Notes: generated by a model from the letters alone, not told the origin. Positions 6,457-30,340 are shown, counted from the stretch's first letter. The stretch: 32,000 nucleotides of DNA from Dehalococcoidia bacterium (GCA_965202815.1 CBDBCD010000002.1:1798638-1830637); one strand, 5' to 3'. Made by a program: numbers and translations.

Positions 6457-6533
6457 TGGCAGGAGCGGCAGGATTCGAACCCGCGACCCTCGGTTTTGGA
6501 GACCGATGCTCTACCAGCCTGAGCTACGCTCCT
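6457..6533 (-). tRNA. tRNA-Trp (anticodon CCA), CCA end encoded
   Basis: Reverse complement folds as AGGAGCG-TA-GCTC..GAGC-A-TCGGT-CTCCAAA-ACCGA-GGGTC-GCGGG-TTCGAAT-CCTGC-CGCTCCT-G-CCA. Confidence 0.95.
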
Positions 6534-6537
6534 GCAA
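6495..6537. repeat. 43-bp direct repeat, copy 1 (tRNA-Trp nt 1-39 plus 4 bp of 5' flank)
   Basis: tttggagaccgatgctctaccagcctgagctacgctcctgcaa is identical to 30298-30340. Identity ends at the anticodon-loop/3'-stem boundary. Confidence 0.95.
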
Positions 6538-6607
6538 AGCTATTTTGGCGTTATCTGAGGTCTAATTTTCGTTTTTGCTGACGCTTATGCTAACGAAAAT
6601 CTTTGAA

Positions 6608-6782
6608 CTAATCCTCGAACGCCTCCGCCGCAGCGACGTCCATCTCCCTCAGAACGTGAGAGTAGAAGATGTCCATCGTTGTTGCTATTGTACTATGTCC
6701 GAGCCTCTCTTGTACAACCTTCGGGTGAACCTCGGCTTTCATCGGAATGGTAGTGTGCCCGTGACGGGAGTCGTGCAGCCGC
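6608..6782 (-). pseudogene. tyrosine recombinase/integrase, C-terminal catalytic fragment only
   Basis: RLHDSRHGH...VVQERLGHSTIATTMDIFYSHV matches box II (HxxR, LGH, Tyr nucleophile). Homology stops at 6782, where the IS5-like terminal repeat begins. The track ORF continues to 6901 by chance. Confidence 0.75.
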
Positions 6783-7624
6783 ACACTAGCAGGCTGCTGA
6801 AAAACGCCGCCTGAGCCGCGTTCTCCTGGTTGGCAAGATACAATGACTCCAGTATCCCATCTGTCCAGGAGACCGTCCAATGAGAGGCAAACGCAATCCA
6901 CAGTCCACCATGCTCGCCTTCGTCAACCTCGACGAGCGAGTCCCGCCAGACCACCCTCTCAGAACCATCAAGCAGGTCACCGACGATGTACTCTCCCGCA
7001 TGTCCGACGACTTCGACAGCATGTACTCGCGGGTAGGCAGAGCCTCGGTTCCACCTGAGAGACTGCTGAAGTCCCTGCTTCTGGTCTCCCTGTACTCGAT
7101 ACGCAGCGAGAGAGCGTTTTGCCAGGAACTGGACTACAATCTGCTGTATCGCTGGTTCCTGGACATGGATCTGATGGAGCCGAGCTTCGACGCGACCGTG
7201 TTCACGTGGCCCAGAAGAAGAGATGGTCGGCGATAGACGGTCGTACCACCTGCCACCAGAGCTACAGGGCGAGCCAGAAGGGTACGCAAGCGTGTTGAGT
7301 CTATCTTCGGGTGGATGAAGACTGTGGGAGGCTTTCGTCGGAGCCGGTATCGTGGGGTGGAGAGGACCGGACTGTATGGTGAGATAGTGGCTACCGCGTA
7401 CAACCTTGTGAGAATGTCGAGGCTGATAGCCGAGGAGGAGACCAAAGTCCCCGTCATCGCATAGCCTTCCCGGGGCGAGGTGTGTCTGTGCGACACCGCA
7501 TAGGGTGATAATGGCGGTATCGGCGGCCTGCTGAGGTCCGAAAAGACCGAGAATGTAGGCTGTCACGCAGCGAGCTCCTCTTCTACGCGGCCCTCAAACC
7601 CATTCTTCCGCACCCTGCTAGTGT
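6783..7624 (+). mobile_element. IS5-family insertion sequence remnant, internally deleted
   Basis: Imperfect terminal inverted repeats: 6783 acactagcaggctgctgaaaaacg versus the reverse complement of 7624 acactagcagggtgcggaagaatg (20/24). They enclose the transposase fragments. No target duplication seen. Confidence 0.6.
6880..7464 (+). pseudogene. IS5-family DDE transposase, N- and C-terminal pieces only
   Basis: N-terminal part, 6880 to about 7205: GRASVPPERLLKSLLLVSLYSIRSERAFCQELDYNLLYRWFLDMDL. C-terminal part, 7237-7464, in another frame: RKRVESIFGWMKTVGGFRRSRYRGVERTGLYGEIVATAYNLVRM. The DDE core is missing. Confidence 0.7.
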
Positions 7625-7899
7625 TTGTGAGTTCGTCAAAGCGACACCCGCAGAAGTTCAACGTACCATCGAGACCTATCAAACCTGCCAAGCCCAAGAA
7701 GCCGAAACAGAGGAAGACAGCGCGACATCCCTACGCCAAGAAGGGTGAGCGGCTCTGAGGGAAAATCAGCCAACCAACTACAACCAAACGGAACCCTTCC
7801 AAAAGAAGCCCCTGTTCGGTGTCCCGGAGGTCATTGTCCCGCTCGTACTCCACCACTACAGATCTGTCGCCAGAGGTGACAGAAGTGAGTGAGAATCGG

Positions 7900-9966: not shown

Positions 9967-10007
9967 GTCACATAAAGATACGACCGCCTATCCTTCTGCC
10001 GATCTGA

Positions 10008-10874: not shown

Positions 10875-10899
10875 TTGTCCTTCTCCTGATGTTGGGTTG

Positions 10900-11322
10900 T
10901 CATGGCATCGTCTCGACGCCCGATTCCGACGCGGCCTGCGCGAGTCTGCGGTCCAGGGTGGCGAGCGGCAACTCTTGACGCAGCGCCAATTCGAGATACA
11001 TTGCGTCGTACATGGAAAGGTCGCAGAGCCTTGCCAGACGGAAAGCGGCGTTGAGATCAGCCTCTGTGTCGGTTTGCAACGGAAGCCCGCTCAAGTACAA
11101 CAATCCTCGTATGCTCTCTCTTAGCGCTATCCTCCCTCTACGCTCACCCACTATCAGCGCGTTGCGCACTTCAAGATGCCAGTGTCGGGTAACCCATCCA
11201 CCGCTATTGAGAACCTCGACCAACGCCGCGTCCGCGCGAGGGTGCGACTCATCCTCGAATATCCACGTATTTGCTACGGAAGCATCTATGACCAACGTAC
11301 TCACTCTCGCGCATACCGCCAT
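10900..11322 (-). CDS. vapC: PIN-domain ribonuclease toxin VapC
   Basis: LVIDASV...(D)...YDAMYLELA...LATLD acidic PIN pattern. The alternative GTG start at 11304 overlaps the antitoxin stop as GTGA. Confidence 0.85.
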   Translation of the reverse strand: MAVCARVSTLVIDASVANTWIFEDESHPRADAALVEVLNSGGWVTRHWHLEVRNALIVGERRGRIALRESIRGLLYLSGLPLQTDTEADLNAAFRLARLCDLSMYDAMYLELALRQELPLATLDRRLAQAASESGVETMP

Positions 11323-11594
11323 TCCATCGCTTCCTCCCAAGTGACTCCGGTTGGCTTGCGAGTTCGCTTCCACTCCAGAAACTTCTCCACGGCCTGTCTT
11401 CGCAATTCAGGATCTTCCATCCAGAGGTCGTCCTCAACAGGAATGATAGCCGCGAACTTCTTTCCGTCGCGGATTATGGCGATGGATTCGCCCCGTTCAA
11501 CATCGTCGAGCAGCTCAGTAAACCTTTCCTTTACTTCCTCTTCCTGAATCTTTCTCTCAATCCACATCTTCATAGGCTGCATACGCGCCTCCAT
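11301..11594 (-). CDS. type II antitoxin, Phd/YefM-like
   Basis: VKERFTELLDDVERGESIAIIRDGKKFAAIIPVED matches the Phd/YefM N-terminal fold pattern. Lies directly upstream of the PIN gene and overlaps it. Exact start is uncertain (several Met codons). Confidence 0.75.
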   Translation of the reverse strand: MEARMQPMKMWIERKIQEEEVKERFTELLDDVERGESIAIIRDGKKFAAIIPVEDDLWMEDPELRRQAVEKFLEWKRTRKPTGVTWEEAMEWRYARE

Positions 11595-11635: not shown

Positions 11636-13381
11636 CTAATCCTCCCTGAATATCTCGTCCCCGCGCTGCAATCTCACCGCTATGCCGTATGTCTGGTTCA
11701 CCGCCCTGGGCGTGGGATAGTGCGCCGCCAGGAACCTGGCCAGTCCGATCAGCACATGCCGCGCCGAGTCTGTTCCCCTGCGGTCTTCGTACTGCTTCAG
11801 CGCCGCCTCGACTATCTGGAAGTGGTGGAAGGTCGAGTCCTCCCGCAGCATGGCGTGGGCAAGCACGGGCAGAACGCCGTCCGGGTCGGGCGATCCCGAT
11901 ACGTAGTCGCTGACCAACGCCGCGGACTGTTCCACCTGCTGCTGGGAGTCCATCACACTCAGTATGCTCTTGCCCAGGTCCTCCTCCCGCCGCGCGCCGT
12001 TGGGTTCGGGGAGACGCTGAGCGGGCATATTGAGAAATCGGTCCAGGTATATGCTCATGGCTACGTCGAACACCGCGCGAGCGAGTTCGACAGACGGCGC
12101 GCGCTTCAGCGCCTGGTGCAGCGCGTTGGCCGCCGTGAGCGTGTTATGCACCGTGTCCCAGTCTCCGAACTCGTTGGAGGTGTGGAATCGCGCCATTCTC
12201 AGGAAGGCGGCGTATGCGACCGCTCCGCCCAACTGTTCGGCTGTCGCTCCTTCTCTCACCGCGTCCTTGAGCGCTTCGATAGTGGCTGCCGGATCGTCTT
12301 CCAGAATGACGCCTACAAGCCCGTCCTCGTCATCCCATTCGCCCCGCGACCTCGCTCCCTCTTCCCACAGACCGGGCAGCGCGTCCCGTGCGGCCCATAC
12401 CAGCGAAGACAGGTCTATCGGGTTGCGCCAGGAGTTGAGTTCCTCGCTGCGTCTTGCGGACGCCATGCCGTGCACCAGGCTGGTAAGTACCTGCCCCGCG
12501 TGTTCCCAGCCTATATGGTCCAGAATCTCGAACGCCTTGTTGCAGAAGTCCAGGACATGGCCCGCGTCCAGGTATAACCTGTCGGTGGCCGCCGCGAACA
12601 CCATATCCGCGATCTCACGCCGGGATATGCCTAGTTCTATCGCCGTCCGCAGCGAGCGTTCCGCGCCCTCGTCGTCCCGCACCTCTATGAAACTTCGGAA
12701 CCAGTCCTTGAATACCTCCGGCCTGGTCTCGCCAGTTGGCAGAGGGTCCACCAGGAATCTGGGCGGCCTGCCGGCGCACTCCGAGGCGACCTGCCTCAGT
12801 CCTTGGTAGAGGGCGCGCGGCCTGTCCTCATCGTTCAGGCGCTCCTGGATGTTCGCCGTGCATGTCAGCATAGTCATCGCCTGCCCCCAGCCCTGCGCCG
12901 AGTAGGTCGTGCCGAACTGCGCGCCTATGGTCAGCGGAACTCGGTAGTCGGCGTCGGACGAATTCAGCCCGAGCGCCGACTTCGCTATCACCAGGCGTAT
13001 GTTGTGTTCCAGTCCGTCTTCCAGGCGATGCGACCATCGCTCAATCGGGTCCGGCTCCGGCGGACTGGGATCAACCCATACGGCCCCATCCTCGATTGAG
13101 ACAGGGAACGACCTTACGTCGTCCGCGAAGGGGTCGAACGTCCCGCCGCTCGAAAGGTCGAAGCGGGCGTGGTGCCAGTGGCAGGTGAGGATGCCGTTCT
13201 TGACCGTGCCTCTGTCCAGCGGGAAGCCCATGTGCGGACACCTGTTGTCCACGGCGGCGAACTCGTCGCCGCGCTTGAACACCGCTATCGTATGACCGCC
13301 GCCGGTGACGACGGTACAGCCGCGTTCCTTCACATCTTCCACGCTGCCGACTCTGAGCAGGTTCTTCGTCGTTGCGGTCAT
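11636..13381 (-). CDS. Rieske [2Fe-2S] domain protein fused to a ~470-aa uncharacterised helical domain
   Basis: CPHMGFPL...CHWHHARFDL is a CxH...CxxH Rieske site. ATG 13381 is preceded by aaaggag. The rest of the protein has no motif I recognise. Confidence 0.8.
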   Translation of the reverse strand: MTATTKNLLRVGSVEDVKERGCTVVTGGGHTIAVFKRGDEFAAVDNRCPHMGFPLDRGTVKNGILTCHWHHARFDLSSGGTFDPFADDVRSFPVSIEDGAVWVDPSPPEPDPIERWSHRLEDGLEHNIRLVIAKSALGLNSSDADYRVPLTIGAQFGTTYSAQGWGQAMTMLTCTANIQERLNDEDRPRALYQGLRQVASECAGRPPRFLVDPLPTGETRPEVFKDWFRSFIEVRDDEGAERSLRTAIELGISRREIADMVFAAATDRLYLDAGHVLDFCNKAFEILDHIGWEHAGQVLTSLVHGMASARRSEELNSWRNPIDLSSLVWAARDALPGLWEEGARSRGEWDDEDGLVGVILEDDPAATIEALKDAVREGATAEQLGGAVAYAAFLRMARFHTSNEFGDWDTVHNTLTAANALHQALKRAPSVELARAVFDVAMSIYLDRFLNMPAQRLPEPNGARREEDLGKSILSVMDSQQQVEQSAALVSDYVSGSPDPDGVLPVLAHAMLREDSTFHHFQIVEAALKQYEDRRGTDSARHVLIGLARFLAAHYPTPRAVNQTYGIAVRLQRGDEIFRED

Positions 13382-13857
13382 GGCGATCTCCTTTCGGGCG
13401 GGCGAATCGTGGGGTTTCATAATGCATGGTTTATAGTTGCGCTGGGCTCGGGCTGGGTGAGCCACTGGGGTTTAACAGGTGGGCGACAGGCGACCGCTGT
13501 GACCAGCGTTCGCCTGCGTTTTGCCTGCGTTAGCTATGAGGCCCTTTTTTTCCCGCCATCCTGTTTTTCGTCAGAATAGCCTGCCGTTTATGAATTTTGG
13601 GTTGTTAGCGGTTAGCCTTTGGTCATTAGTTGTCGGTTATTGGCGGCTGATTAGTTTGTATGTTCGCATACTAGCATGGATTTGGAGAGTTGTATAGTCG
13701 GGATGGACGGATTGGGCAGATAAGGGTTGCATTTGCCCTTTTCTTGGGAATGGCGTCCTTTCTATACTATAGGAGTCGGCTGGACGCCGATGGCTGTTAT
13801 ATTGGGCGCGCTTTCTCGCGCGCCGGGGTTCAGAATCCAGTGGATCAGGAGAGACGA

Positions 13858-15090
13858 ATGAAGAGATTACAGGTTTTTGTATTGGGGATGGCGCTTCTGG
13901 CAGTCGTGGCCGCGCTCGTGGCGTGTTCACAGGAAATGTCCGACGCCGAGATACAGGCCGCCGCCCAGGAAATGGGCATGATGACCAAGGCCGAGGCGGA
14001 CGCAATGGCCCAGGGAGCTATGATGACTGAAGATCAGGTCATGGCCGCGGCAAAAGAAATGGGCATGATGACCAAGGACGAAGCCGACGCGATGGCCGGC
14101 GACAGCATGATGGTCAGCAACCGGCTTCAGCAGGTCAAGGACAGGGGCAAGGTCATTTGCGCCAGCCGAAACGACGTCCCCGGCTATGGCTACCTCGACG
14201 CCTCCGGCAACAACGTCGGGTTCGACATTGACCTGTGCCGCGCGCTTGCGACCGCGGTGCTGGGCGACCCTAACGCCATCGAGATCCGTCTGATTTCAGC
14301 GGCGGAGCGCGGGCCGACGATCCAGTCCGGCGAAGTTGACATGCTCGTTCGCACGGTCACCTGGACCACCTCCCGCGATTCTCAGTGGGGCAACTACGCC
14401 CAGACGATGTTCTACGACGGACAGGGCTTTATGGTCAACAAGGACCTCGGCATATCCAGCGCGCTCGAGCTCGGAGGAGCCAGCGTCTGCGTGACCCAGG
14501 GCACCACCACCGAGCTCAACCTGGCCGACTTCTCCAGACAGAATGGCCTGAACATAGAAGCCGTAACGTTCGAAGACACCGACGCCGTTAAAGCGGCCTA
14601 CGAAAGCGGACAGTGCGACGCCTTCACCAACGACCGCTCGCAGCTGGCTGCGATAGGGTCCGGCATGGACGACCCCAACGCGCACGTCATTCTGCCCGAG
14701 ACCATCTCCGAAGAGCCTCTTGGTCCCGTCGTCCCCCACGGTGACGACCAGTGGTTCGACGTCGTCAAGACGGTCATGGGCATCCTCATCTATGCCGAGG
14801 CCTATGGCGTAGGACAGATGGATGTTCCGAGCTCGGTTACCGGCGACGCCAAGGTTGACCGCCTGTTCGGACTGGAAGGCTCATTCGGACAGGAGAGCCT
14901 GGGACTGGGCGATACCGTCGCGCAGGACGTGATCAAGGCCGTCGGCAACTACGGCGATATCTACGACCGCAACCTAGGCCCTGACGGAATCAATCTTCCC
15001 CGAGAGAACGGGCGCAACGCGCTGTGGGCGGACGCCCCCTGCATGGACTGCCCGAAGGGCGGACAGATCTACGCCGCGCCTCTGAGGTAG
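13858..15090 (+). CDS. aapJ: amino-acid ABC transporter substrate-binding lipoprotein (AapJ/BztA-like)
   Basis: ATG 13858 follows caggagaga. Signal peptide with lipobox LVAC. Met-rich repeat linker, then a family-3 SBP body (KVICASRNDVPGYGYLD...GFDIDLCRALA...). Confidence 0.85.
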   Translation: MKRLQVFVLGMALLAVVAALVACSQEMSDAEIQAAAQEMGMMTKAEADAMAQGAMMTEDQVMAAAKEMGMMTKDEADAMAGDSMMVSNRLQQVKDRGKVICASRNDVPGYGYLDASGNNVGFDIDLCRALATAVLGDPNAIEIRLISAAERGPTIQSGEVDMLVRTVTWTTSRDSQWGNYAQTMFYDGQGFMVNKDLGISSALELGGASVCVTQGTTTELNLADFSRQNGLNIEAVTFEDTDAVKAAYESGQCDAFTNDRSQLAAIGSGMDDPNAHVILPETISEEPLGPVVPHGDDQWFDVVKTVMGILIYAEAYGVGQMDVPSSVTGDAKVDRLFGLEGSFGQESLGLGDTVAQDVIKAVGNYGDIYDRNLGPDGINLPRENGRNALWADAPCMDCPKGGQIYAAPLR

Positions 15091-15138
15091 AGAACCCGGT
15101 AGTCACGTCTGACGATGTGAAACAACCGAGATAGCAAG

Positions 15139-15174
15139 AGCGGCTGGCGAATTTTCGCCAGCCGCTTCTTTTCG
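15139..15174 (+). terminator. rho-independent terminator/attenuator between the SBP and permease genes
   Basis: Perfect 12-bp stem agcggctggcga/tcgccagccgct, loop attt, followed by tcttttcg. Confidence 0.65.
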
Positions 15175-15283
15175 TCGGACGCCATGCCAATTTTACGGCT
15201 CGCGCTGTCGGACAGCGGCAAAGTTCGCGTCGTTGTGGTAGCATCTGCGACGCAGACCATACTTAGAGAGTATCTTCAACCCG

Positions 15284-16480
15284 ATGACGAACATTCTGAC
15301 CTATCAGGGCATCCCTATTTGGAGGCATGCGCGCGCTATTCAGTGGGCCGCGCAGATTGTGTCCGGCATACTGGTCGTGTTCTTAGTGGCCTGGTTTTTC
15401 TTCAACATTTACAGCGCGATACACGACCGTAACATCCCGTTCGGTTTCAGTTTTCTGGAAAGGTCATATCAGACCCCCATAGGCCAGCACTTCCTTCCCT
15501 TCGAACCGTCCAAATCATTCCGGTACGCTCTGGGAGTAGCGGTCACCAATACCATAGTAGTCTCTATCGTAGGCGTCATTCTCGCTACGATACTTGGGAT
15601 CATCATCGGAGTGGCGCGGCTGTCGGGCAATTGGCTTGTGGCGAAGATTGCGACGGTCTATATCGAGTTCTTCCGAAACGTCCCGCTGCTGGTGCAGCTC
15701 TTCTTCTGGTTCTACATCATTCTCGCGCTGCCCCGCGTGCGAGACGGCTATGTCCTGCTCGACGCCTTCTACATCAACAACGCGGGTATATCCATGCCCT
15801 GGCCCACCCCTCCCAATCTCGGCGCCGGTCTCATATGGTTGGCCGTGGCGGTAGTTGCGATAATCCTCGGAGTCATCGTCTATCGAATAATGGCTAAGAG
15901 AGAACTCCTCACGGGACAGGCATCCTATCCGGTAGTCTATGGATGCGGCGTGGCTGTCGCAGTGGGCGCGGCTGCATGGATAATCGTCATGATCGCAAAC
16001 GGCCAGGCTCCCTTCACCATATCCGTTCCAGCTCCGGAGGGACGATTCGGCAGGATAGGCGGCGGTTTCACGGCGTCGGCGGGTCTGCTGGTGCTGCTGG
16101 TCGGACTGGTGATATACACCTCTTCGTTCATAGCGGAGCTTGTCCGCGCAGGGATACAGTCGGTCGGACGTGGACAGACTGAGGCTGCGCGCTCTCTTGG
16201 GCTTTCCCAGATGGAAACTCTCCGGCAGGTAACCTTTCCGCAGGCCCTGCGCGTTATCATTCCCCCGCTCATCAGCCAGTATCTCAACCTCACCAAGAAC
16301 AGCAGCCTCGCCGGAGCGATAGGCTACGCCGACCTCACCAACGTCGCCAAGACGATGACCCAGACCGCCCCGGCGGTGTCCATCTTCATACTCATCATGC
16401 TGGCCTACCTCGCGATGAGCCTGACTTACTCGCTTATCGGCAATCTGTACAATAGACACATCAGGTTCGTCGGAGCATAG
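15284..16480 (+). CDS. aapQ: amino-acid ABC transporter permease (AapQ/BztB-like)
   Basis: Polytopic membrane protein with the EAA-type loop AELVRAGIQSVGRGQTEAARSLGLS. Confidence 0.9.
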   Translation: MTNILTYQGIPIWRHARAIQWAAQIVSGILVVFLVAWFFFNIYSAIHDRNIPFGFSFLERSYQTPIGQHFLPFEPSKSFRYALGVAVTNTIVVSIVGVILATILGIIIGVARLSGNWLVAKIATVYIEFFRNVPLLVQLFFWFYIILALPRVRDGYVLLDAFYINNAGISMPWPTPPNLGAGLIWLAVAVVAIILGVIVYRIMAKRELLTGQASYPVVYGCGVAVAVGAAAWIIVMIANGQAPFTISVPAPEGRFGRIGGGFTASAGLLVLLVGLVIYTSSFIAELVRAGIQSVGRGQTEAARSLGLSQMETLRQVTFPQALRVIIPPLISQYLNLTKNSSLAGAIGYADLTNVAKTMTQTAPAVSIFILIMLAYLAMSLTYSLIGNLYNRHIRFVGA

Positions 16481-16483
16481 ACC

Positions 16484-17737
16484 TTGGCTGCCAGCGTCAA
16501 CCAGTTCCAACCCCCGCCAAGCCTGCCGCCGCCGCGCTCCGAGACCGGAGCGGTCGGCTGGATGCGCGCCAACCTGTTCAGCACTTGGTACAACGGGCTT
16601 CTCACTGTCATACTCATGATAATTCTAATCGCGGCAGTGTGGTTCGGCGGCAAGTGGACTGTCACCGACGCCGACTGGACGGTCATCGGCGTTCTGGGCG
16701 GCCAGATGGTCATAGGCCAGTACAACGTCGAGTCGTCCTGCCCGGGCCAGAACTGCTTCTGGAGGCCCCAGGCCAGTCTGATCCTGGTAACGGTCCTGCT
16801 CGGAATGGGCTGGGCCATAGCCGGTGGAGGTGTCGCCAAACGCATTGCGCTCGGGGCGGCAATCGTGTCGGCGGCCTTTGCGCTGCTGCCATACAGTTTC
16901 GAGGAGATGGGCATAGATGTGCGCCTGTTGTTGGTGGCGAACCTGCCCGCGGTCTTCGCGGGATGGGCGCTCGCGCGATACACCCCTCTCGGAACTCCGA
17001 AGTGGGTGGGAATTCTGGCTGTCGTATTCTTCCTGCTTACACTCGTTCTTCTTCGCGGGATAGAGGGCGTGCCCGGTATGCAGCCCGTATCCGTCATACA
17101 CTGGGGCGGAATAACCCTGAACATCCTGCTTGCGGTGGCGGGTATTACGCTCAGCCTGCCTATCGGCATCGCGCTCGCGCTGGGACGGCGCAGCAATCTG
17201 CCCGTCGTCAAACTGCTCTGCGTGGTGTTCATAGAGGTATTCAGGGGCGTGCCTCTGATAACCCTGCTGTTCATGTCGCAGGTGCTGGTGCCGCTCGCTT
17301 TTCCGGAGGACCTGAAGCCGAACTCGCTGCTCCGCGCCGCCATCGTGATCACACTCTTCAGCGCGGCGTACATGGCGGAGAACATCCGGGGCGGCTTGCA
17401 GGCTCTCCATCCCGGGCAGGAGGAGGCGGCGCGAGCGCTCGGACTTCCCGGCTGGCAGACGACGCTGTTCATCTCGCTGCCCCAGGCGATCAGAAACGTC
17501 ATACCCGCCATAGTGGGGCAGTTCATAGCGCTGTTCAAGGACACCAGCCTCGTTTACATCATCGGTATGCTGGACATCGTTGAGATAAGCCGGGCGTTCA
17601 TACAGGGCAACACCGAATACCTGTCCAGCGCGAAGGAACTGTTCATATTCCTCGCGCTGGTCTTCTGGGTATTCACCTACACTATGTCGTATGTGAGCGG
17701 ACGGGTAGAACGCTACCTGGGCGTGGGTCAGCGCTGA
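16484..17737 (+). CDS. aapM: amino-acid ABC transporter permease (AapM/BztC-like)
   Basis: TTG at 16484, or ATG at 16562. WMRANLFSTWYN N-terminus. EAA loop AENIRGGLQALHPGQEEAARALGL. Confidence 0.85.
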   Translation: MAASVNQFQPPPSLPPPRSETGAVGWMRANLFSTWYNGLLTVILMIILIAAVWFGGKWTVTDADWTVIGVLGGQMVIGQYNVESSCPGQNCFWRPQASLILVTVLLGMGWAIAGGGVAKRIALGAAIVSAAFALLPYSFEEMGIDVRLLLVANLPAVFAGWALARYTPLGTPKWVGILAVVFFLLTLVLLRGIEGVPGMQPVSVIHWGGITLNILLAVAGITLSLPIGIALALGRRSNLPVVKLLCVVFIEVFRGVPLITLLFMSQVLVPLAFPEDLKPNSLLRAAIVITLFSAAYMAENIRGGLQALHPGQEEAARALGLPGWQTTLFISLPQAIRNVIPAIVGQFIALFKDTSLVYIIGMLDIVEISRAFIQGNTEYLSSAKELFIFLALVFWVFTYTMSYVSGRVERYLGVGQR

Positions 17738-17777
17738 CGCCGCATGATAAGTCAGTGAGTTCAAGAGAGGTTGCGCT

Positions 17778-18536
17778 ATGACTACCAACGGAACACAGGC
17801 AGAGTCCGAGAGCGTCATCGTTTGCCGCGACGTGCATAAGTGGTTCGGCGACTTCCACGTCATCAAGGGGATCTCCACCGATATATACAAGGGCCAGGTG
17901 GTCGTAGTATTCGGGCCGTCGGGATCGGGGAAGTCCACCTTCATCAGGATGCTCAACCGGCTGGAGGAGCACCAGCGGGGACAGATAATCATAGACGGCA
18001 TTGAGCTGACCGACGACATCAGGAACATCAACGCCATACGCCGCGACGTGGGAATGGTCTTCCAGTCATTCAATCTCTTCCCTCACCTGAGCGTCCTGAG
18101 AAACATAACGCTCGGTCCCACACAGGTCAGGAAGATGCCGCAGGACGAGGCCGAGGAAGCGGCTCACCAACTTCTGGAACGCGTGGGAATTTCCGAGCAG
18201 GCCGAGAAGTACCCCGCCGAACTTTCCGGCGGTCAGCAGCAGCGAGTAGCCATAGCCCGCGCGCTCGCGATGCAGCCCAACATCATGCTCTTCGACGAGC
18301 CGACCTCGGCGCTCGACCCCGAGATGATCAAGGAAGTGCTGGACGTCATGCAGGAGTTGGCCAAGTCCGGCATGACGATGGTGGTCGTCACCCACGAGAT
18401 GGGATTCGCCCGCGAGGTCGCCGACCGCATGATCATGTTCGACGAGGGAATCATCGTAGAGGAAGGCCCGCCCGAGCAGATCTTCGAGAACCCGCAAAAT
18501 GACCGCACGAAGCTGTTCCTGTCACAGATACTATAG
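17778..18536 (+). CDS. aapP: amino-acid ABC transporter ATP-binding protein
   Basis: Walker [11 protein letters not shown]-loop, signature [15 protein letters not shown], Walker [14 protein letters not shown]-loop VVTHEM. Confidence 0.95.
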
Positions 18537-21758: not shown

Positions 21759-21831
21759 GGCAACGTAGCTCAGCGGTCAGAGCGGGCGCTTCATAAGCGC
21801 TAGGTCACAGGTTCAAATCCTGTCGTTGCCA
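21759..21831 (+). tRNA. tRNA-Met (anticodon CAT; elongator type, could be Ile2), CCA not encoded
   Basis: GGCAACG-TA-GCTC-AGCGGTCA-GAGC-G-GGCGC-TTCATAA-GCGCT-AGGTC-ACAGG-TTCAAAT-CCTGT-CGTTGCC-A. Confidence 0.9.
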
Positions 21832-21929
21832 CTCAACGGCAAAGGCAATGAGAAGAACAGAGCCGTTGGACGGGTTGCGGCGTGAGCGCCGCCGAACGGA
21901 GTCCTTCCCGGCGTAAACCCGGAAAGCCG

Positions 21930-22005
21930 GGGCGGTTAGCTCAGTGGTTAGAGCGCTCGCCTCACACGCGAGAGGTCCGAGGTTCAAATCCTCGACCGCC
22001 CACCA
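21930..22005 (+). tRNA. tRNA-Val (anticodon CAC)
   Basis: GGGCGGT...CTCGC-CTCACAC-GCGAG...ACCGCCC-A-CCA cloverleaf, 76 nt. Confidence 0.95.
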
Positions 22006-22052
22006 CCGGCGACCGGCGGGGACGTGAGTTCAAGGAGCGTATATACACAGGG

Positions 22053-22138
22053 GCCGAAGTGGCGGAACGGCAGACGCGCTACGTTCAGGACGTAGTGCCC
22101 GCAAGGGCGTGTGGGTTCAAATCCCTCCTTCGGCACCA
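22053..22138 (+). tRNA. tRNA-Leu (anticodon CAG), long variable arm
   Basis: GCCGAAG...CTACG-TTCAGGA-CGTAG, variable arm TGCCCGCAAGGGCG, then ...CTTCGGC-A-CCA. Confidence 0.95.
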
Positions 22139-22171
22139 TCTCCAATATCCGTTGTCGTGTCCTGAAAGCGC

Positions 22172-22247
22172 GCGCTTGTAGCTCAGTGGATAGAGCGCAT
22201 CCCTGCGGAGGATGAGGCCGTGGGTTCGAGTCCCACCAAGCGCGCCA
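22172..22247 (+). tRNA. tRNA-Arg (anticodon GCG)
   Basis: GCGCTTG-TA-GCTC-AGTGGATA-GAGC-G-CATCC-CTGCGGA-GGATG-AGGCC-GTGGG-TTCGAGT-CCCAC-CAAGCGC-G-CCA. The loop CTGCGGA places G-C-G at positions 34-36. Confidence 0.85.
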
Positions 22248-22278
22248 CCCGCGCCAAATGCGGCATACTACATTTCAT

Positions 22279-22356
22279 GGGCGGTTAGCTCAGCTTGGTT
22301 AGAGCGTCTGTCTTACACACAGAAGGTCAGAGGTTCGAGTCCTCTATCGCCCACCA
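22279..22356 (+). tRNA. tRNA-Val (anticodon TAC)
   Basis: GGGCGGT...TCTGT-CTTACAC-ACAGA...ATCGCCC-A-CCA. Confidence 0.95.
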
Positions 22357-23149: not shown

Positions 23150-24376
23150 CAGGGCAATCGCATCTTATTGAGCGAGTACCTTGAGCGGATATTGAGTGTC
23201 CCAACCTGCCTTTTTGCGCTTAGCGGCTATGCCAACTTTGAGAGTTTTCTCCTGTATGAGCATATTCAACGCCATCCGGCGCAGAGCGGCGAGTATCTCA
23301 GCGCTGTTGCCCTTTCTCACTCTGGAAGCGTCCTCTCCAAAGGACACGTCCAGTACCCAGCGCACAGAGTTCTCCACTTCCCAGTGTCCGCGAACGGCCT
23401 CCGGCAGCCGCTCGGCGTCGCCCGGCAGAGACGATATGTAGTAGCGGGTCTGTGAAGACACATCCCCAGGTATGTCGCGCTCGGACTCGACCATAGCCAC
23501 ACTTCTCAGGTTCGACCACTGCTCTCGCTCATTCAGGTAGGATATGAACTCAGGGGACCAGAGCGTTGTGCAGCGTCGAGTCTCCACTCTTCCATGTCCC
23601 TTCTCAACAGTCTCGAACCAGTCTGAGTGAGGGTCGTCAAAGCCTGTCTGTCGTCCATACTCGAACATCTCGGCCACATCGTCGTAGAGTTGGCCCTGGT
23701 TGCGCTTCAGCGACAGAACGTAGTCCGCGCCTCGCTCTGTGATGGTCCGCGCTATGTCCTTCTGACATCCCATCGCGTCTATGGTTGCTATGCAGCCACT
23801 CAGCTCCAGCATCCTGAGCAACTTCGGGATCGCCGTTATCTCGTTGGACTTGTCATCCACCTTGACCTGTCCCAGAACCAGTCTGTTGGCTGACGCCCAG
23901 GCGTTGACCAGATGGATCGCCGACCTGCCCGCTCGCGCGTCGTGAGAACGCCTCACACTCTTGCCGTCTATCGCCACTATCTGACCTTCTGTTATCTCAC
24001 TGACCGACCTGACCCACTGCACAAAACAACTCTGAAACCTCTCAGCATCCAGCATCGAGAACACTCTGCCGAAGGTGTCATGGGAGGGGATTGAGTTTGG
24101 CAGTTCTAAAAAGCCGCTCAACCACTCCTTCCTGGAGTTGCCGAACAATTCCACGTCCACCCAGGAGTCCGCTCCACACACCACGGCGCAGATGGCGATT
24201 GTGATGATGTCTGTCAGGCTGTGTCGCTTGGTTCGGTCTATACGAGGGTCTTCAAGCTCTGAGAAGATACTGATTAGAGAAGCTGTTTGAGTGTCTTCCA
24301 TGAGGCCGCCCCCAATTCTTAGGATGACCTATATTCTATAACCCATAGAAGACCCCGTTTAGATGCGATTGCCCTG
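23150..24376 (-). mobile_element. intact ISAs1-family insertion sequence (1227 bp)
   Basis: Perfect 16-bp terminal inverted repeats: cagggcaatcgcatct at 23150-23165 and its reverse complement at 24361-24376. They enclose a single full-length transposase ORF. Confidence 0.85.
23165..24301 (-). CDS. ISAs1-family (H-repeat-associated) DDE transposase
   Basis: FSELEDPRIDRTKRHSLTDIITIAICAVVCGADSW is the N-terminal signature. DDE region IDAMGCQ...HWEVENSVRWVLDVSFGED. Confidence 0.9.
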   Translation of the reverse strand: MEDTQTASLISIFSELEDPRIDRTKRHSLTDIITIAICAVVCGADSWVDVELFGNSRKEWLSGFLELPNSIPSHDTFGRVFSMLDAERFQSCFVQWVRSVSEITEGQIVAIDGKSVRRSHDARAGRSAIHLVNAWASANRLVLGQVKVDDKSNEITAIPKLLRMLELSGCIATIDAMGCQKDIARTITERGADYVLSLKRNQGQLYDDVAEMFEYGRQTGFDDPHSDWFETVEKGHGRVETRRCTTLWSPEFISYLNEREQWSNLRSVAMVESERDIPGDVSSQTRYYISSLPGDAERLPEAVRGHWEVENSVRWVLDVSFGEDASRVRKGNSAEILAALRRMALNMLIQEKTLKVGIAAKRKKAGWDTQYPLKVLAQ

Positions 24377-24449
24377 CCAAAAGAGCAGATTGCAAAAGTC
24401 CGGCGCTGTTTCACATAGTGTAGCCAATGTTGTCGAGTGCTCTATCGTC

Positions 24450-25122: not shown

Positions 25123-25225
25123 CCCTCAAGGAACCCTAAAGCGGAACAGGAGACCAGTCGTGCAGCCTCTACTCGGCGCACCTGCCAATACCCTAGGGCC
25201 CTTCCGCGCGACGTCTGAACGTGCG

Positions 25226-25720
25226 TTACTTGGTGGAGTTACAAACCATAGGTCGCATTCGCATAGTACCAAGGGGATGAGATATATCTGAACTAGGATC
25301 GTCCATGAACTGGAGTTTTCTGATGACGAATATGGCCGCGAGCGGAACGATGACTCCCGTGCCGATTACGGCAATGATGATCCAGGCCATCTCCCAACCG
25401 ACAGTATCTATGAGGTACTTGGTCAGGGGGACGAACACCATAGCGCCTATGGGAACTCCCAGAGACATGAACGCAAGGGCGCGGCCTCTGTTGCGAACGA
25501 ACCACTTGAGCACCGGCACAGAGGTCGCGAGCGCGCCCGGCCCGCTCATGCCGACGAGTCCCATGATCGTAAACAGCAGGACCAGTTGCCATGCGTGACC
25601 AACGTGTGCGAGGCCCATCAGGGCGAGTCCGGTCATCATTGCGGCGACTGGCAGGATCAGCCGTGATCGGAAGCGGTCGAGCAGGGGCCCTATTGCGGGG
25701 CTGGACAGCGCGCCCGCGCC
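25226..25720 (-). pseudogene. MFS transporter fragment (about TM2-TM6 only)
   Basis: GPLLDRFRSR is the MFS loop 2-3 motif, followed by four hydrophobic spans. The N-terminus and the entire C-terminal half are missing. The upstream part of the track ORF overlaps the formamidase gene. Confidence 0.6.
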
Positions 25721-25775
25721 CCGTCTGGCGTTGAATGTCCGGGCGACCTTATGCGAGAAGGGAACACTATGTTCC

Positions 25776-26705: not shown

Positions 26706-26832
26706 AGAGGATTTCCCCCTTTCTTGAATCGAGCTTAGGATATGCTCTAAATATCCCGTGTTGTATCGCCTCAGCATCAGGATTCGGACGTCCTTGTCGA
26801 GTAGCAGGGCAGCCACCGGGGCAGTGAACACA

Positions 26833-27372
26833 TCAGACGACCCATTCAGAGTTGCTCCTAACCAGATCTTCGTTGGAGCCGGTTATGTATGCGCCTATGT
26901 GGGGGACAAGGAGATGACGGTACTCCTCCACCTGTGCCTCGATGTCGTGACCATCCTTATCCTGTGCCTCAAGCTCGAATATCCGACCAACATCCTCTAC
27001 ATCATCGAGATTGAACTTGATGTTTTCCTTATGCCACAGCTCACGTCGCTTTCGTACCACAGCGCGTATGCCCAGAGCGGCCTCCAGTACCTCAATGGTC
27101 CCAGGATCAGGCAGCGGCCAGAGTTGAAAGTGACTGACCCTTGTGTCCGCCTCCTGGTGGTCCCGGTAGTAGATCAGTTCGCTTCTCTCGCCCTCCGTCC
27201 GGAGCTTGAGCCTCCGAGCGCCCTCTCCCTCTGCAAGTTCTGGCAGGTTGTAATAGCGGTCCACCTGCTCCTTGGTCTCGATGAAGTCCGCGCCTTTATC
27301 CCTCAGGAGCTGGCGCACCGGCCCAAAGTCCGGGCAATATGCCTTAATCTCACGGTTCAGACTCACCTTCAT
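26833..27372 (-). CDS. CYTH-domain protein (class IV adenylate cyclase / triphosphate tunnel family)
   Basis: N-terminal NREIKAY strand, then RRLKLRTEG, IYYRD and KFNLDDVEDVGRIFELE strands in CYTH order. ATG 27372 (RBS gggaga), or 27387. Confidence 0.7.
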   Translation of the reverse strand: MKVSLNREIKAYCPDFGPVRQLLRDKGADFIETKEQVDRYYNLPELAEGEGARRLKLRTEGERSELIYYRDHQEADTRVSHFQLWPLPDPGTIEVLEAALGIRAVVRKRRELWHKENIKFNLDDVEDVGRIFELEAQDKDGHDIEAQVEEYRHLLVPHIGAYITGSNEDLVRSNSEWVV

Positions 27373-27603
27373 CCGATGTTCTCCCATAGCAATTGACCAA
27401 TGTGTCTCAGGCCTGAGCCAGCTTCCTGTATTGGATACTCTCGCCTCGTCAGACACGCAGTATACATCAAGGCCATGAGCGACAAGTAGCGTGGTTCCGA
27501 TCTCCGGGAGAACAGCCACCCTGATCGTTCCTCGGCATGCAATGAGAGACGTTCGCACATGGCTCCGGAACTGTCTCGGTTGGATACGGAAACCACTCAG
27601 CGG

Positions 27604-27647
27604 TTGACAAGTCGTGCCAGTGGGCCTAACATATCGTTAGACGATAT
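27604..27647 (+). promoter_or_regulatory. padR promoter with overlapping palindromic operator
   Basis: TTGACA (27604-27609), 17 nt, TAACAT (27627-27632). Perfect palindrome atatcgt-tag-acgatat at 27631-27647. Confidence 0.5.
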
Positions 27648-27688
27648 AACGAGAACCAATATAAATTGCTTCCAGGAAGGCTCGGACA

Positions 27689-28054
27689 TTGGCGAACCGT
27701 CCCCCCACAGACCTGCTTCCTGTCCCATCTGCACAGTTCCACATCCTGATGGCCCTTGCCACTGGAGACAAACACGGCTACGCGATCATGCAGGAAGTAG
27801 AACTCTTCACAGACGGGACGGTCACCATGGGCCCTGGCACCCTGTATGGCGCCGTGAAGCAGATGCTGGCCTCTGGCCTCATCCAGGAGAGCGACGAACG
27901 CCCCGACCCTGAACTGGACGACCAGCGTCGTCGCTACTACAGGATGACAACTTTGGGTGGGCGCGTGCTCGACGCGGAGGTCGGAAGACTAGAACAACTG
28001 GTACTAACCGCCAGGAGCAGGCGACCGACATCCACAAGGACGCAAGGTACCTAA
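27689..28054 (+). CDS. PadR-family transcriptional regulator
   Basis: FHILMALATGDKHGYAIMQEVELFTDGTVTMGPGTLYGAVKQMLASGLI...RRRYYRMTTLG. TTG start 8 nt after aggaagg. Confidence 0.9.
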   Translation: MANRPPTDLLPVPSAQFHILMALATGDKHGYAIMQEVELFTDGTVTMGPGTLYGAVKQMLASGLIQESDERPDPELDDQRRRYYRMTTLGGRVLDAEVGRLEQLVLTARSRRPTSTRTQGT

Positions 28055-28055
28055 C

Positions 28056-28256
28056 GTGCTATCTGAGAAACTCTACAGAGCACTGCTATTCGCCTACCCA
28101 AGAGAGCACCGTCGCGAGTACGGAGATCTGATGGTCCAGCTGTTTCGAGACCGTATGCGTCGCGATGGTGGTGGCTTAGGAGTTCTCAAAGTCTGGCTGG
28201 CGATGATCGGCGACCTTTTAACATCAGCGTTTAAGGAGCACAGCAACGGAGGAAGC
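28056..28256 (+). pseudogene. N-terminal remnant of a PadR-associated permease-prefix-type protein, reading in frame into purC
   Basis: LYRALLFAYPREHRREYGDLMVQLFRD is typical of proteins encoded next to padR. There is no membrane domain and no stop before the purC start. Confidence 0.5.
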
Positions 28257-28415
28257 ATGACTGCGAGAGCATGGGCCGGTATGGAGAACGCTATTCACAC
28301 CCCAGAAGGCTACACGGACCGGATACGACAAGAGCTCGAAAATTGCCTCACTGAGACGAATCTTTCTCAAGGCGAGAAGTTCATTGGCAAAGCACGGGAT
28401 CGCTACGATCTTGGG
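28257..28415 (+). pseudogene. purC: purC 5' segment, out of frame with the gene body
   Basis: ...CLTETNLSQGEKFIGKARDRYDLG is the conserved N-terminal strand of long-form SAICAR synthase. ATG at 28257 or 28281. The frame breaks at G-run 28413-28415. Confidence 0.65.
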
Positions 28416-28420
28416 ATCGT

Positions 28421-29269
28421 ATGGTACTCATTACCACCGACCGACAGAGTGCCTTCGACAGGGTGCTGGCCGCTATCCCCTTCAAAGGGCAGGCTCTCAA
28501 CATGACGAGTGCATGGTGGTTTGAACAGACCCGCCATATTGTGCCGAATCAGGTTCTTTCCGTCCCCGATCCAAACGTCACAATTGCCAAGAAATGTACC
28601 GTCTTCCCGATTGAGTTCGTGGTGCGTGGATACATCACCGGAAGCACGAACACCTCCCTCTGGACGGTCTATCAGAGTGGTCAGCGTAACTACTGTGGCA
28701 TCGATTTTCCCGACGGCCTGGTGAAGAACCAGAAGCTGCCAACGAATCTCCTCACACCGACCACCAAAGAGGAGGACCACGACTGTCCGATCAGCCCTGA
28801 CGAGATCGTGTCCGAGAACTGGATGACGGCCGATGATTGGGAACGATGCAGCCGAATCGCGCTGGAACTTTTCGAATTCGGTCAAGCCAAGGCAGCCGAG
28901 CGTGGCCTGATTCTCGTAGATACCAAATATGAGATGGGCCGTGACGAGAACGGAGAGATCCTTCTGATCGACGAGATCCACACCTCTGACTCCAGTCGCT
29001 ACTGGATCGCCGACACTTATCAACAGCGCATTCAGGAGGGACAGGAACCCGACAACGTCGACAGAGAATTCCTCCGGCTCTGGTTCACTGAGAACTGCGA
29101 TCCCTACGAGGATGAGGTCCTGCCACCAGCGCCGGACGATCTTGTAACCGAGCTCTCAAGACGCCACATCTACCTTTACGAGAAGATCACCGGTCGCTCA
29201 TTCGAATTTCCAGAGGCGGACCAGCCAATCGAGACACGCTTGGAAAGCAACCTCGAAGGAATACAGTGA
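28421..29269 (+). CDS. purC: phosphoribosylaminoimidazole-succinocarboxamide (SAICAR) synthase, long form, body
   Basis: MVLITTDRQSAFDRVL...VVRGYITGS...LTPTTKEE...LILVDTKYEMG...LIDEIHTSDSSRYW. The first ATG in this frame lacks the N-terminal GKxRDxY strand, which is encoded upstream in another frame. Confidence 0.9.
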   Translation: MVLITTDRQSAFDRVLAAIPFKGQALNMTSAWWFEQTRHIVPNQVLSVPDPNVTIAKKCTVFPIEFVVRGYITGSTNTSLWTVYQSGQRNYCGIDFPDGLVKNQKLPTNLLTPTTKEEDHDCPISPDEIVSENWMTADDWERCSRIALELFEFGQAKAAERGLILVDTKYEMGRDENGEILLIDEIHTSDSSRYWIADTYQQRIQEGQEPDNVDREFLRLWFTENCDPYEDEVLPPAPDDLVTELSRRHIYLYEKITGRSFEFPEADQPIETRLESNLEGIQ

Positions 29270-29937
29270 AGAAATACATTCTCTTTGACCATGATGGGGT
29301 CTTAGTCGAAACAGAGCAGTGGTATTACCTGGCAAACAAACGAGCGCTGGCATCTTTCGGAATTGATCTCCCACGAGACGCATATCTGGCGAATATGGCA
29401 AATGGAGTTTCCGTATGGGAGGCGGCACGAGTTTCAGGAATATCCGAATCCAAAATTGATCGTGGCCGAGAACTAAGAAACCGGTACTATCAGGAATACC
29501 TGATGACCGAAGACATCGAGATCGAGGGTGTTCTGGAAACGCTAGACGTACTCGCAGGTGAGTACAGGATGGGCATAATTACTACCTCCAAACCACCTGA
29601 TTTCGCCCTGATCCACGAAAGGCGATCCATCCTGGATCATATGGAGTTCTATTTGACTCGTGAGGATTACGAGCGAGCTAAACCACATCCCGAACCCTAT
29701 CTGAAAGGACTCCAACGCTTTGGCGCTACTGCCGCTGAAACGGTAGTTATCGAAGACTCGGCCAGAGGGTTGAAGTCGGCAATAGCGGCGGGTATTGACT
29801 GCATCGTGGTTGCAAACGAGTTCACCGCATCTCACGATTTGTCCAAAGCAACTGCCAAGGTCGCTACGTTCAGGGAACTGCCATCTGCTATAAAGGGCTT
29901 GACAAGTTTAGGCAGGAACCAATCCCAGAATCCCTGA
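29266..29937 (+). CDS. HAD-IA family hydrolase (phosphatase/beta-phosphoglucomutase-like)
   Basis: KYILFDHDGVLVETE, IITTS, KPHPEPY and VIEDSARGLKSAIAAG are HAD motifs I-IV. GTG start overlaps the purC stop as GTGA. Confidence 0.85.
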   Translation: MKKYILFDHDGVLVETEQWYYLANKRALASFGIDLPRDAYLANMANGVSVWEAARVSGISESKIDRGRELRNRYYQEYLMTEDIEIEGVLETLDVLAGEYRMGIITTSKPPDFALIHERRSILDHMEFYLTREDYERAKPHPEPYLKGLQRFGATAAETVVIEDSARGLKSAIAAGIDCIVVANEFTASHDLSKATAKVATFRELPSAIKGLTSLGRNQSQNP

Positions 29938-30297
29938 GATAGTGGTCGTGAAGCAGGCGATAGTCAGAAAGGTGATGTAGGCGTCGGGATGTTGCTGAAG
30001 CCAGTCCAGTATCTCGCATCACACTACCGCCATCTCGACTCCGCTCCAGTAGCTGAAACGAGAGATGGAAGTGATTCACGTACAGCCGCATCGCACCGTA
30101 CAGTGTCAACGCCGATGTACATTTGACCCACCCTTGTCCGATCACCCGGTTTCCTTGTTGACTTCAGCCCCCGCATTCAGCAGTTGCTGTGATGTCAGCA
30201 GTCCAGAACGGGAATTGGAGGTCGGGAATGAAAGGATTAGCTACGGAATGCCACTGAAAGAGAAGGAAAAAGGCATATCCGGGAAGCTCGTACTGCA

Positions 30298-30340
30298 TTT
30301 GGAGACCGATGCTCTACCAGCCTGAGCTACGCTCCTGCAA
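30298..30340. repeat. 43-bp direct repeat, copy 2: orphan 5' half of tRNA-Trp
   Basis: Identical to 6495-6537. No matching 3' half follows to its left (ctgca versus cggtt). Confidence 0.95.

Follow-up and report, generated by a model that had tools for sequence, protein, structure and literature searches.

A probable tyrosine-integrase scar in the 5' half of a tRNA-Trp gene in a Dehalococcoidia bacterium

A 32,000-nucleotide stretch of the genome of a Dehalococcoidia bacterium (GCA_965202815.1, CBDBCD010000002.1:1798638-1830637; the whole of it is called the window here, and positions are counted from its first letter) carries an intact tRNA-Trp(CCA) gene and, 23.8 kb away on its 5' side, an orphan copy of the 5' half of the same gene. 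The 43-bp direct repeat that these form is probably the scar -- the left and right attachment sites, attL and attR -- of a tyrosine-integrase insertion into the 5' half of tRNA-Trp, an event that places DNA upstream of the tRNA gene. The repeat and its register in the tRNA, an integrase relic beside each of the two copies, an empty site in a related chromosome, the same integrase-tRNA arrangement throughout a clade of related integrases and the opposite arrangement in their distant relatives are all directly observed; that an integrase was the catalyst, that the incoming DNA carried a working promoter for the tRNA, and in what order the events took place, we infer from sequence comparison.

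The repeat and its register in tRNA-Trp

Bases 6495-6537 and 30298-30340 are identical at 43 of 43 positions, lie on the same strand in direct orientation and start 23,803 bp apart. A search of the window for the 43-mer with up to 3 mismatches allowed returned exactly these two copies, while 100 shuffles returned none (0.00 expected). Using ARAGORN and Rfam, the intact tRNA-Trp(CCA) has been placed at 6457-6533 on the minus strand, with its anticodon at position 35 and an Rfam tRNA score of 66.7 bits. In the cloverleaf as read here (acceptor 1-7, D arm 10-26, anticodon stem 28-32/40-44, loop 33-39), the repeat consists of nt 1-39 of the tRNA together with 4 bp of 5' flank, and identity stops at the last base of the anticodon loop, which is the boundary between the loop and the 3' strand of the stem. 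The 3' half of the tRNA (6457-6494) runs on into the conserved host flank carrying the PspC/LiaF cluster, and the 5' half into integrase relic A. Copy 2 is found 5' of the minus-strand tRNA-Trp; its tRNA fragment, nt 1-39, occupies 30298-30336, the 3' half is absent, and neither ARAGORN nor Rfam calls a tRNA at 30298-30340. An Rfam scan at E<=1 gave no further tRNA fragments marking other island boundaries. The features on which the argument turns are the following.

6457-6533, minus strand: intact tRNA-Trp(CCA) (ARAGORN, Rfam)
6495-6537: repeat copy 1, tRNA nt 1-39 plus 4 bp; putative att core at the junction with the intact tRNA (sequence identity)
6538-6607, minus strand: spacer from the integrase stop to the tRNA 5' end, referred to as A-type (blastn, alignment)
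6608-6785, minus strand: integrase relic A, 58 C-terminal codons (Pfam, blastn)
6687-6716, minus strand: TGTACA-N18-TACAAT, candidate tRNA-Trp promoter, in integrase codons KVVQERLGHSTI (sigma-70-like scan)
30298-30340: repeat copy 2, apparently the displaced, older orphan 5' half of tRNA-Trp (identity; no tRNA call)
30341-30409, minus strand: short spacer, referred to as B-type, plus integrase relic B (30364-30409) (blastn against L001)

A first-pass annotation, made from the sequence alone, had described a perfect 43-bp repeat made up of nt 1-39 of tRNA-Trp(CCA) and 4 bp and an orphan 5' half at copy 2, both of which are borne out by the search and the tRNA calls; the crossover in the anticodon loop that it proposed is supported by the point at which identity ends. 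It had also held that the 5' rather than the 3' half is duplicated, and here too the block from nt -4 to 39 stands against the canonical controls described below, in which the block runs from nt 30, 31 or 36 to nt 76. The insert does lie upstream of tRNA-Trp, as had been said, and the tRNA's 5' half, with the region upstream of it, would therefore come from the incoming DNA.

Integrase relics beside both copies

Relic A (6608-6785, minus strand) encodes the 58 C-terminal residues VRLHDSRHGH...LGHST...YSHV, followed by a stop codon. It represents the HxxR...LGH...Y region of a tyrosine recombinase and matches Pfam Phage_integrase with E=2.4e-5; its upstream end is cut at about 6785 by a fragment of an insertion sequence (IS). 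Relic B is a 15-codon stub, and over 30364-30407 it is 89% identical to 6687-6730. The Pfam match of the one and the 89% identity of the other agree with the earlier description of a tyrosine-integrase 3' relic following each copy of the repeat. Besides the 11% difference, an indel of about 125 nt distinguishes the two relics, while the adjoining tRNA halves are identical; because of this discrepancy the two would derive from successive elements, not from one duplication. A Pfam scan of the open reading frames (ORFs) of the bracketed interval revealed no recombinase other than the stub of relic A.

By homology, the spacer at 6538-6607 corresponds to the spacer together with the C-terminal tail in intact integrases of the clade described below, and in blastn comparisons 6538-6785 is 85.8% identical to the integrase 3' end and spacer of locus L010 and 79.7% identical to those of L009 (the loci used for comparison carry L numbers throughout). 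The spacer on its own is about 86% identical to L010:11159-11210, although the tRNAs differ, being Trp in the window and Thr in L010. Since it is kept across the two, related integrase 3' ends and spacers would have been joined now to one tRNA 5' half, now to another, a hint that the att core is swapped in modular fashion.

An empty site in a related chromosome

The 3.78-Mb chromosome OZ241888.1 of a related Dehalococcoidia bacterium (L001) contains one intact tRNA-Trp whose 5' end runs directly into a B-type relic. Window positions 6436-6540, comprising the PspC side, the tRNA 3' half and the core, match L001 11621-11725 at 96%, and window positions 30298-30407, comprising the core, the short spacer and relic B, match L001 11680-11789 at 98.2%. 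Such a junction is just what would be expected if 6538-30297 and one core copy were absent, and the comparison thus shows an apparent empty site and speaks for an insertion. Because L001 joins relic B to an intact tRNA-Trp, the order of insertions can also be read from it: relic B would be the older resident, and the A-type junction beside the working tRNA the newer one. The first-pass annotation had anticipated a relative in which tRNA-Trp abuts the flank of the orphan copy, and its suggestion of tandem accretion gains from the same locus, where the older relic B stands next to an intact tRNA-Trp; its further suggestion that an older island continues past 30340 does not hold up, just a 46-67-nt relic being visible there.

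On the 3' side of tRNA-Trp, conserved chromosome with HAD, MDMPI, GAPDH and enolase genes is found in L006, L007, L009 and positions 1-2236 of the window. Since L006, L007 and L009 keep this flank and the neighbours otherwise differ, the 3' side of the tRNA is, on this comparison, the stable host side and the 5' side is hypervariable.

Arrangement of the integrase clade

Homologues of the 58-amino-acid relic A are mostly other stubs. The clade was delineated with a longer query, the frameshifted integrase copy of L005 after reconstruction; its members, P0121-P0140, are 60-85% identical to this reconstructed protein, the next matches being at 43% or below, and they contain the domains Arm-DNA-bind_4, Phage_int_SAM_3 and Phage_integrase. 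At all the clade loci recovered, 10 of 10, a tRNA gene follows the integrase or its relic on the same strand, its 5' end 17-74 nt past the end of the latter, the distance from the integrase stop to the tRNA being 17 nt in L009 and 22 nt in L005. The target is tRNA-Trp in L001, L006, L007, L009 and the window, tRNA-Thr(CGT) in L005, L010, L093 and L094, and tRNA-Arg(CCT) in L008. This constant upstream position, always in the same direction, speaks for the first-pass interpretation. The intact integrases of L008-L010 each have an HTH_17 (xis-like) gene immediately upstream, Replic_Relax is found farther upstream in L008 and L009, and HTH regulators or IS elements lie upstream of the integrase in L008, L009 and L010. 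Because HTH_17 and Replic_Relax are located upstream of the integrase, the body of the clade elements is placed, judging from these domain matches, 5' of the tRNA. Viral contigs scanned with a clade integrase gave no match, and a scan of metagenome contigs with the clade alignment yielded distant integrases (44% identity or less) and no intact clade elements.

From this last scan, 80 distant integrases with 24-44% identity were available for comparison. A tRNA lies within 600 nt in 33 of the 80. In 26 of those 33 loci the two genes are convergent, the 3' end of the tRNA facing the 3' end of the integrase; in 6 the tRNA is upstream in tandem, one locus is divergent, and the order integrase-then-tRNA on the same strand is found in 0 of the 33. 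L012, L013, L017 and L022, which are among the closest of the distant relatives, show the canonical placement at tRNA-Trp. An unbiased scan for displaced tRNA fragments returned nt 1-39 for the window and nt 31-76 of tRNA-Trp for L013, whose element measures 8 kb, integrase included; it also returned nt 36-76 for L047, nt 30-76 for L079 and nt 54-76 for L082. The blocks of L013, L047 and L079 overlap that of the window only around the anticodon loop, while that of L082 lies further 3'. Because the repeated blocks overlap there, the sublocation within the tRNA appears to be the classic one, with the orientation alone inverted. The dyad symmetry of the anticodon stem-loop makes such a flip plausible, an argument drawn from what PMC8371274 says of tRNA attachment sites.

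The tRNA-Thr(CGT) of L010, a member of the clade set, also has a canonical 3'-part repeat (L010:11217-20844), in which nt 31-74 recur 9.5 kb downstream over 47 nt at 98% identity; a degenerate third copy, at 68%, lies at 11809-11855. The segment inside this repeat carries MFS, dnaE2-like polymerase and imuB-like (IMS) genes, without an integrase. To judge from the two kinds of junction, this tRNA gene appears to have been used from both ends.

A candidate promoter within integrase codons

Between positions 6350 and 6950, the only sigma-70-like hit is TGTACA-N18-TACAAT, on the strand of the tRNA, and in L001 it is again the sole sigma-70-like site near tRNA-Trp. The site is exact in 11 of 11 clade sequences, six non-coding relics included. 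The codons under the hexamers, in the stretch encoding KVVQERLGHSTI, are GTT GTA CAA/G ... CAT AGT ACA ATT, a series of AT-rich synonymous choices; in the canonical loci L012, L013 and L017 an identical peptide, KIVQERLGHSTI, is specified by the GC-rich codons ATT GTC CAG ... CAC TCC ACC ATC, and the hexamers are missing. The GC content at third codon positions (GC3) of the 12-codon window covering the motif is 0.33, versus a gene mean of about 0.7; by this measure the motif ranks lowest among the windows of L010, and in L009 it comes 12th from the bottom of 388. Truncations of the relics fall 15-20 nt upstream of the -35 hexamer (copy 2 of the window, L007, L093) or further away, never inside the site. 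Relic B keeps TGTACA-N18-TACAAT at 30364-30393, and in the B-type relic the deletion of about 125 nt puts the -10 hexamer at 27 nt from the first nucleotide of the tRNA. With the integrase stop 17-22 nt from the tRNA in L009 and L005, a promoter has to lie inside the integrase gene or further upstream, and TGTACA-N18-TACAAT is probably the element-borne tRNA promoter. Stubs would then persist beside these tRNAs, it is proposed, because the promoter lies within them.

More broadly, we would suggest, as a tentative idea that may well prove wrong, that this Dehalococcoidia clade flipped its target orientation and wrote a tRNA promoter into synonymous codons of its catalytic domain (VVQERLGHSTI), with transcription of the host tRNA-Trp, -Thr or -Arg dependent on the element once it has integrated. 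If this is true and the tRNA gene is the sole copy, the integrase gene could never shed its last 50-250 bp or so; its stub would stay on as a locked-in fossil that offers later elements a homologous landing pad, a genetic addiction that works through an essential tRNA instead of a toxin.

The orphan half, too, has an intact TGTACA-N18-TACAAT (30364-30393) 27 nt upstream. From there it could fire leftward through the truncated tRNA half and into the end of the island, antisense to a HAD gene.

Contents of the bracketed interval

The DNA between the two repeat copies carries, upstream of the A-type junction, the following features.

6880-7464, plus strand: IS5/IS1182-like transposase fragment, internally deleted, truncating integrase A (Pfam)
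7465-30297: interval body (Pfam, tblastx)
10900-11594: vapBC (Pfam)
13690-18536: complete amino-acid ABC importer (Pfam)
21759-22356, plus strand: five tRNAs, Met-CAT, Val-CAC, Leu-CAG, Arg-GCG and Val-TAC (ARAGORN, Rfam)
23150-24379, minus strand: intact IS4-like element with a 378-amino-acid transposase, DDE_Tnp_1_assoc + DDE_Tnp_1 (Pfam)
27587-29938, plus strand: PadR-purC-HAD block (Pfam, nucleotide identity to L091/L092)
within 7465-30297: InhA-like protease, gluconolactonase-like gene, Rieske protein (Pfam)
within 7465-30297: two luciferase-like oxidoreductases, metallo-beta-lactamase-fold gene, glyoxalase/ArsR, CYTH (Pfam)
within 7465-30297: MFS and formamidase genes, the MFS ORF covering part of the profile only (Pfam)

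The IS fragments, vapBC, the five tRNAs, the ABC importer and purC that the first-pass annotation had listed are thus all present. The IS fragment at 6880-7464 gives a match to DUF772 with E=5.9e-16 and one to the C-terminal end of DDE_Tnp_1_6 with E=7.2e-8. Among the tRNAs, Arg-GCG has an anticodon that is uncommon in bacteria. In tblastx comparisons with the element bodies of L005 and L008-L010, the integrase end and an IS alone gave matches. The IS4-like element is 87% identical to the IS inside the L009 element (L009:3484-4712), and the integrase relic of L007 is truncated by a transposase related to it; from these matches the family seems to be active across the lineage. At 13956-14097, in the 5' part of a solute-binding-protein ORF, two 55-nt copies, 85% identical and 87 nt apart, encode a repeated peptide segment.

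The PadR-purC-HAD block is 90-93% identical at the nucleotide level to L091 and L092, the homologous block being PadR-purC-HAD in L091 and purC-HAD in L092, and purC homologues are found across the lineage at 86-95% identity. By comparison with L091/L092, the purC of the window is full length in its DNA, with a 1-nt deletion in a GGGG run near 28413-28418 (within the 28281-28420 region) that throws it out of frame some 45 codons in; either the copy is redundant and decaying, or the deletion is a long-read/homopolymer assembly error. The integrase beside tRNA-Thr at L005:8880-10255, from which about 398 amino acids have been reconstructed, has two frameshifts to be read through, and given the purC indel and the low-coverage labels of some contigs, a number of the "pseudogenes" in these assemblies may be sequencing errors. 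A tRNA gene lies less than 700 nt upstream of the purC block in both of the other loci (Ser-GCT at L091:9207-9299, Ile-GAT at L092:9241-9317), homology to the window starting 224 nt past the tRNA in L091 and 684 nt past it in L092; as far as these loci go, the block repeatedly borders tRNA genes.

Proposed course of events and alternatives

In the reading that we prefer, a tyrosine integrase would have effected a crossover within the anticodon loop of tRNA-Trp, using an element attachment site (attP) made up of tRNA nt -4 to 39 adjoining the 3' end of the integrase gene, where a canonical attP has the 3' part. Integration would have put DNA upstream of tRNA-Trp and pushed the host 5' half 23.8 kb away together with relic B, the stub left by an earlier element from this family. 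The working tRNA would then be composed of an element-derived 5' half and the host 3' half, and its transcription would start in element DNA, for which TGTACA-N18-TACAAT in the codons for VVQERLGHSTI is the candidate. Afterwards an IS would have trimmed the integrase to 58 codons, and the recognisable backbone of the element would have been lost.

A number of observations weigh against this course of events. To the right of the core the empty-site match spans 67 nt only, and beyond 30409 the window and L001 are not syntenic. The Pfam scan of the interval ORFs detected no xis, replication or transfer genes, and the arm-type repeats common to 6538-6800 and 29800-30297 come down to one uninformative 9-mer. 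The GC content of the interval is 0.584, versus 0.604 and 0.570 in the flanks, and tetranucleotide distances are 1.3-2.5, versus a baseline of 1.78 +/- 0.40; neither scan shows a compositional break, and the interval is host-like by both. The neighbours of the purC block differ in L091 and L092, which have no tRNA-Trp half beside it. At L005 and L008-L010 no 5'-half repeats were found in a search of up to 10 kb upstream with 8 mismatches per 40 nt allowed, the elements there being probably longer than the 10-kb flank searched. In the A-type copies 138-172 nt separate the candidate promoter from the tRNA, a long way for a tRNA promoter, and of the integrase that the Islander method looks for in an island there is a 58-codon stub only. 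Finally, with homologous A and B flanks, RecA and an integrase would yield the same product, so that the enzyme would differ and the structure would not.

Several of these points concern the origin of the 23.8 kb, all of which the first-pass annotation had taken for incoming element. That is doubtful, with no compositional break, no mobility genes apart from the IS elements and vapBC, and the PadR-purC-HAD block present elsewhere in relatives. At least part of the interval looks like chromosome of the lineage, because this block is 90-93% identical to that of relatives in which it is not near tRNA-Trp; it could be either cargo captured from a close relative or the result of a later translocation into a decaying island. 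One alternative that must be taken seriously, even though we lean away from it, is that a small reversed element integrated and that most of the 23.8 kb is chromosomal DNA that was moved between the att copies later, the backbone being deleted. Native-like composition, the 90-93% conservation of PadR-purC-HAD in other contexts, the IS fragment at the break in the integrase, the intact IS4-like element and the loss of all backbone genes would fit such a history, as would the frequent rearrangement implied by neighbourhoods that differ among all the relatives. However, an inversion with one endpoint inside the interval would have broken one of the two intact junctions or flipped the orphan, which is in direct orientation, no like IS pair brackets a segment, and the purC frameshift and the partial MFS gene fit redundant, decaying cargo equally well.

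The scar itself could have arisen in other ways. A RecA-type single crossover, by which circular DNA with the 3' end of integrase A and a tRNA 5' half entered the locus formed by relic B and the tRNA, would have had 43 identical bp and a further 44 bp at 89% to work with, and the integrase now beside the tRNA is non-functional; but for RecA to recombine efficiently 43 bp is little, the identity stops distally at the anticodon-loop boundary, and the presence of the clade at three tRNAs, in the same register to the integrase, points to site-specific recombination, so that this route is judged unlikely. An assembly artefact, in which two strains, or a chromosome and a circle, were threaded through the shared 43-mer, might be suspected since the relatives are metagenome-assembled genomes, several contigs have labels like _3x and _5x, and the homopolymer indel in purC is typical of long-read errors. 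Any path through the 43-mer, however, needs a real molecule in which 30290-30297 abuts a 5' half, that is, an orphan- or attP-type junction; the alternative, an L001-like chromosome and a 23.8-kb circle joined at the core, would include the excised element itself, and the independently assembled L001 has the B-type junction, which together make an artefact very unlikely. Hardly to be credited is a segmental duplication without any integrase, in which the tRNA 5' half and the integrase 3' end were copied to a place 23.8 kb away. It would account for the identical layout of the two copies (5' half, spacer, integrase 3' end), but the tRNA part is identical at 43 of 43 positions while the integrase part is 89% identical and has an indel of about 125 nt, the B-type flank is found on an intact tRNA in L001, which makes copy 2 the former resident junction, and the boundary falls at the edge of the anticodon loop, the classic crossover position.

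Relation to known systems

The window holds a new, decayed case of a type of integration that is rare but already known; not covered by the literature cited here are the clade-wide occurrence of the property in Dehalococcoidia, the promoter signature at synonymous sites and the systematic retention of stubs. The element of Zhao & Williams 2002 (J Bacteriol 184:859) reportedly belongs to a bacterium, encodes a tyrosine integrase and uses the 5' part of a tRNA gene for recombination; it is said to lie upstream of the tRNA and to have to supply both the 5' part and the promoter. It resembles the present case in the targeting of the tRNA 5' part and in the upstream position of the element. The present case differs in belonging to the Chloroflexota/Dehalococcoidia, in a clade-wide arrangement at three tRNA identities, in the decay of the window element, and in a candidate promoter that lies inside the integrase coding sequence. 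PMC6563490 (citing Zhao & Williams 2002) describes reversed tRNA integration as rare but documented, and in view of this and of PMC8371274, the first-pass presentation of the arrangement as unprecedented has to be given up.

In PMC8371274 the pTN3-like integrases of the Thermococcales (Cossu et al. 2017) are described as having the 5' half of a tRNA as attB; the rebuilt tRNA is said there to be expressed from the integrase promoter, and the situation to be "seldomly encountered in bacteria". The tRNA 5' half as target is common to both systems, but the pTN3-like integrases are archaeal and "suicidal", the integrase being split on integration, whereas those of L008-L010 are unsplit and end 17-58 nt before the tRNA, and the clade domains (Arm-DNA-bind_4, Phage_int_SAM_3, Phage_integrase) are of bacterial phage type. 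With the canonical anticodon-loop (class I) integrases (Williams 2002, as cited in PMC8371274 and PMC6563490), represented here by L013, the clade shares its protein superfamily (36-44% identity), the tRNA sublocation, the integrase 3' end facing the core, and tandem arrays through re-use of the site, the blocks of nt 31-76 and nt 1-39 overlapping in the anticodon loop. In canonical class I, however, the 3' part is duplicated, the element lies downstream and the host promoter is kept; in the clade it is the 5' part, and the element lies upstream.

The islands found by Islander/TIGER (PMC4383910) are similar in having an intact tRNA and a direct cognate fragment, in a size of 2-200 kb and in their tandem-array logic. 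The configuration filter of Islander turns away just two cases, a 5' fragment that lies downstream of the tRNA gene and a 3' fragment that lies upstream (PMC4383910), so that the upstream 5' fragment of the window passes it. Islander needs an integrase gene for each island, whereas the window has stubs of 58 codons (island A) and 15 codons (relic B).

Integration into the 5' half, rare as it is in bacteria, gives foreign DNA control of a tRNA gene, possibly the only one of its kind in the genome. The window and the related loci provide a natural example with an occupied site, an empty site and two stacked insertions, and the 5'-half property appears to be clade-wide in an environmentally abundant, uncultured group rather than a one-off. 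An integrase stub on the upstream side of a tRNA gene may be the trace of an old integration site, and it may be a functional promoter instead of junk. A caution also follows, in that DNA between att repeats need not be wholly imported; part of it here looks chromosomal.

Neighbouring genes

Using Pfam, the left flank of the window has been found to encode MDMPI, HAD, PspC/LiaF proteins and a two-component system of the LiaS/LiaR type. Its identity to four metagenome-assembled genomes of Dehalococcoidia is 77-96%, and to L001-L003 84-96%, which assigns the window to an uncultured member of the Dehalococcoidia (Chloroflexota). No tRNA-Trp follows PspC in L002 and L003. Both flanks of the LiaFSR-PspC cluster differ from the window in L003, and L002 begins inside the cluster, leaving the right side alone for comparison, which differs as well. 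Import of tRNA-Trp itself was considered on this account and rejected, the cluster standing in another context in L003 (and L004) and the flank of the tRNA being kept in L006, L007 and L009. In the window and in L001 the LiaS/LiaR-PspC-LiaF cluster (window 2288-6441) has HAD on one side and tRNA-Trp on the other; it is missing from that position in L006, L007 and L009, where tRNA-Trp adjoins HAD-MDMPI-GAPDH-enolase without it, and on the evidence of these alignments it behaves as a movable block.

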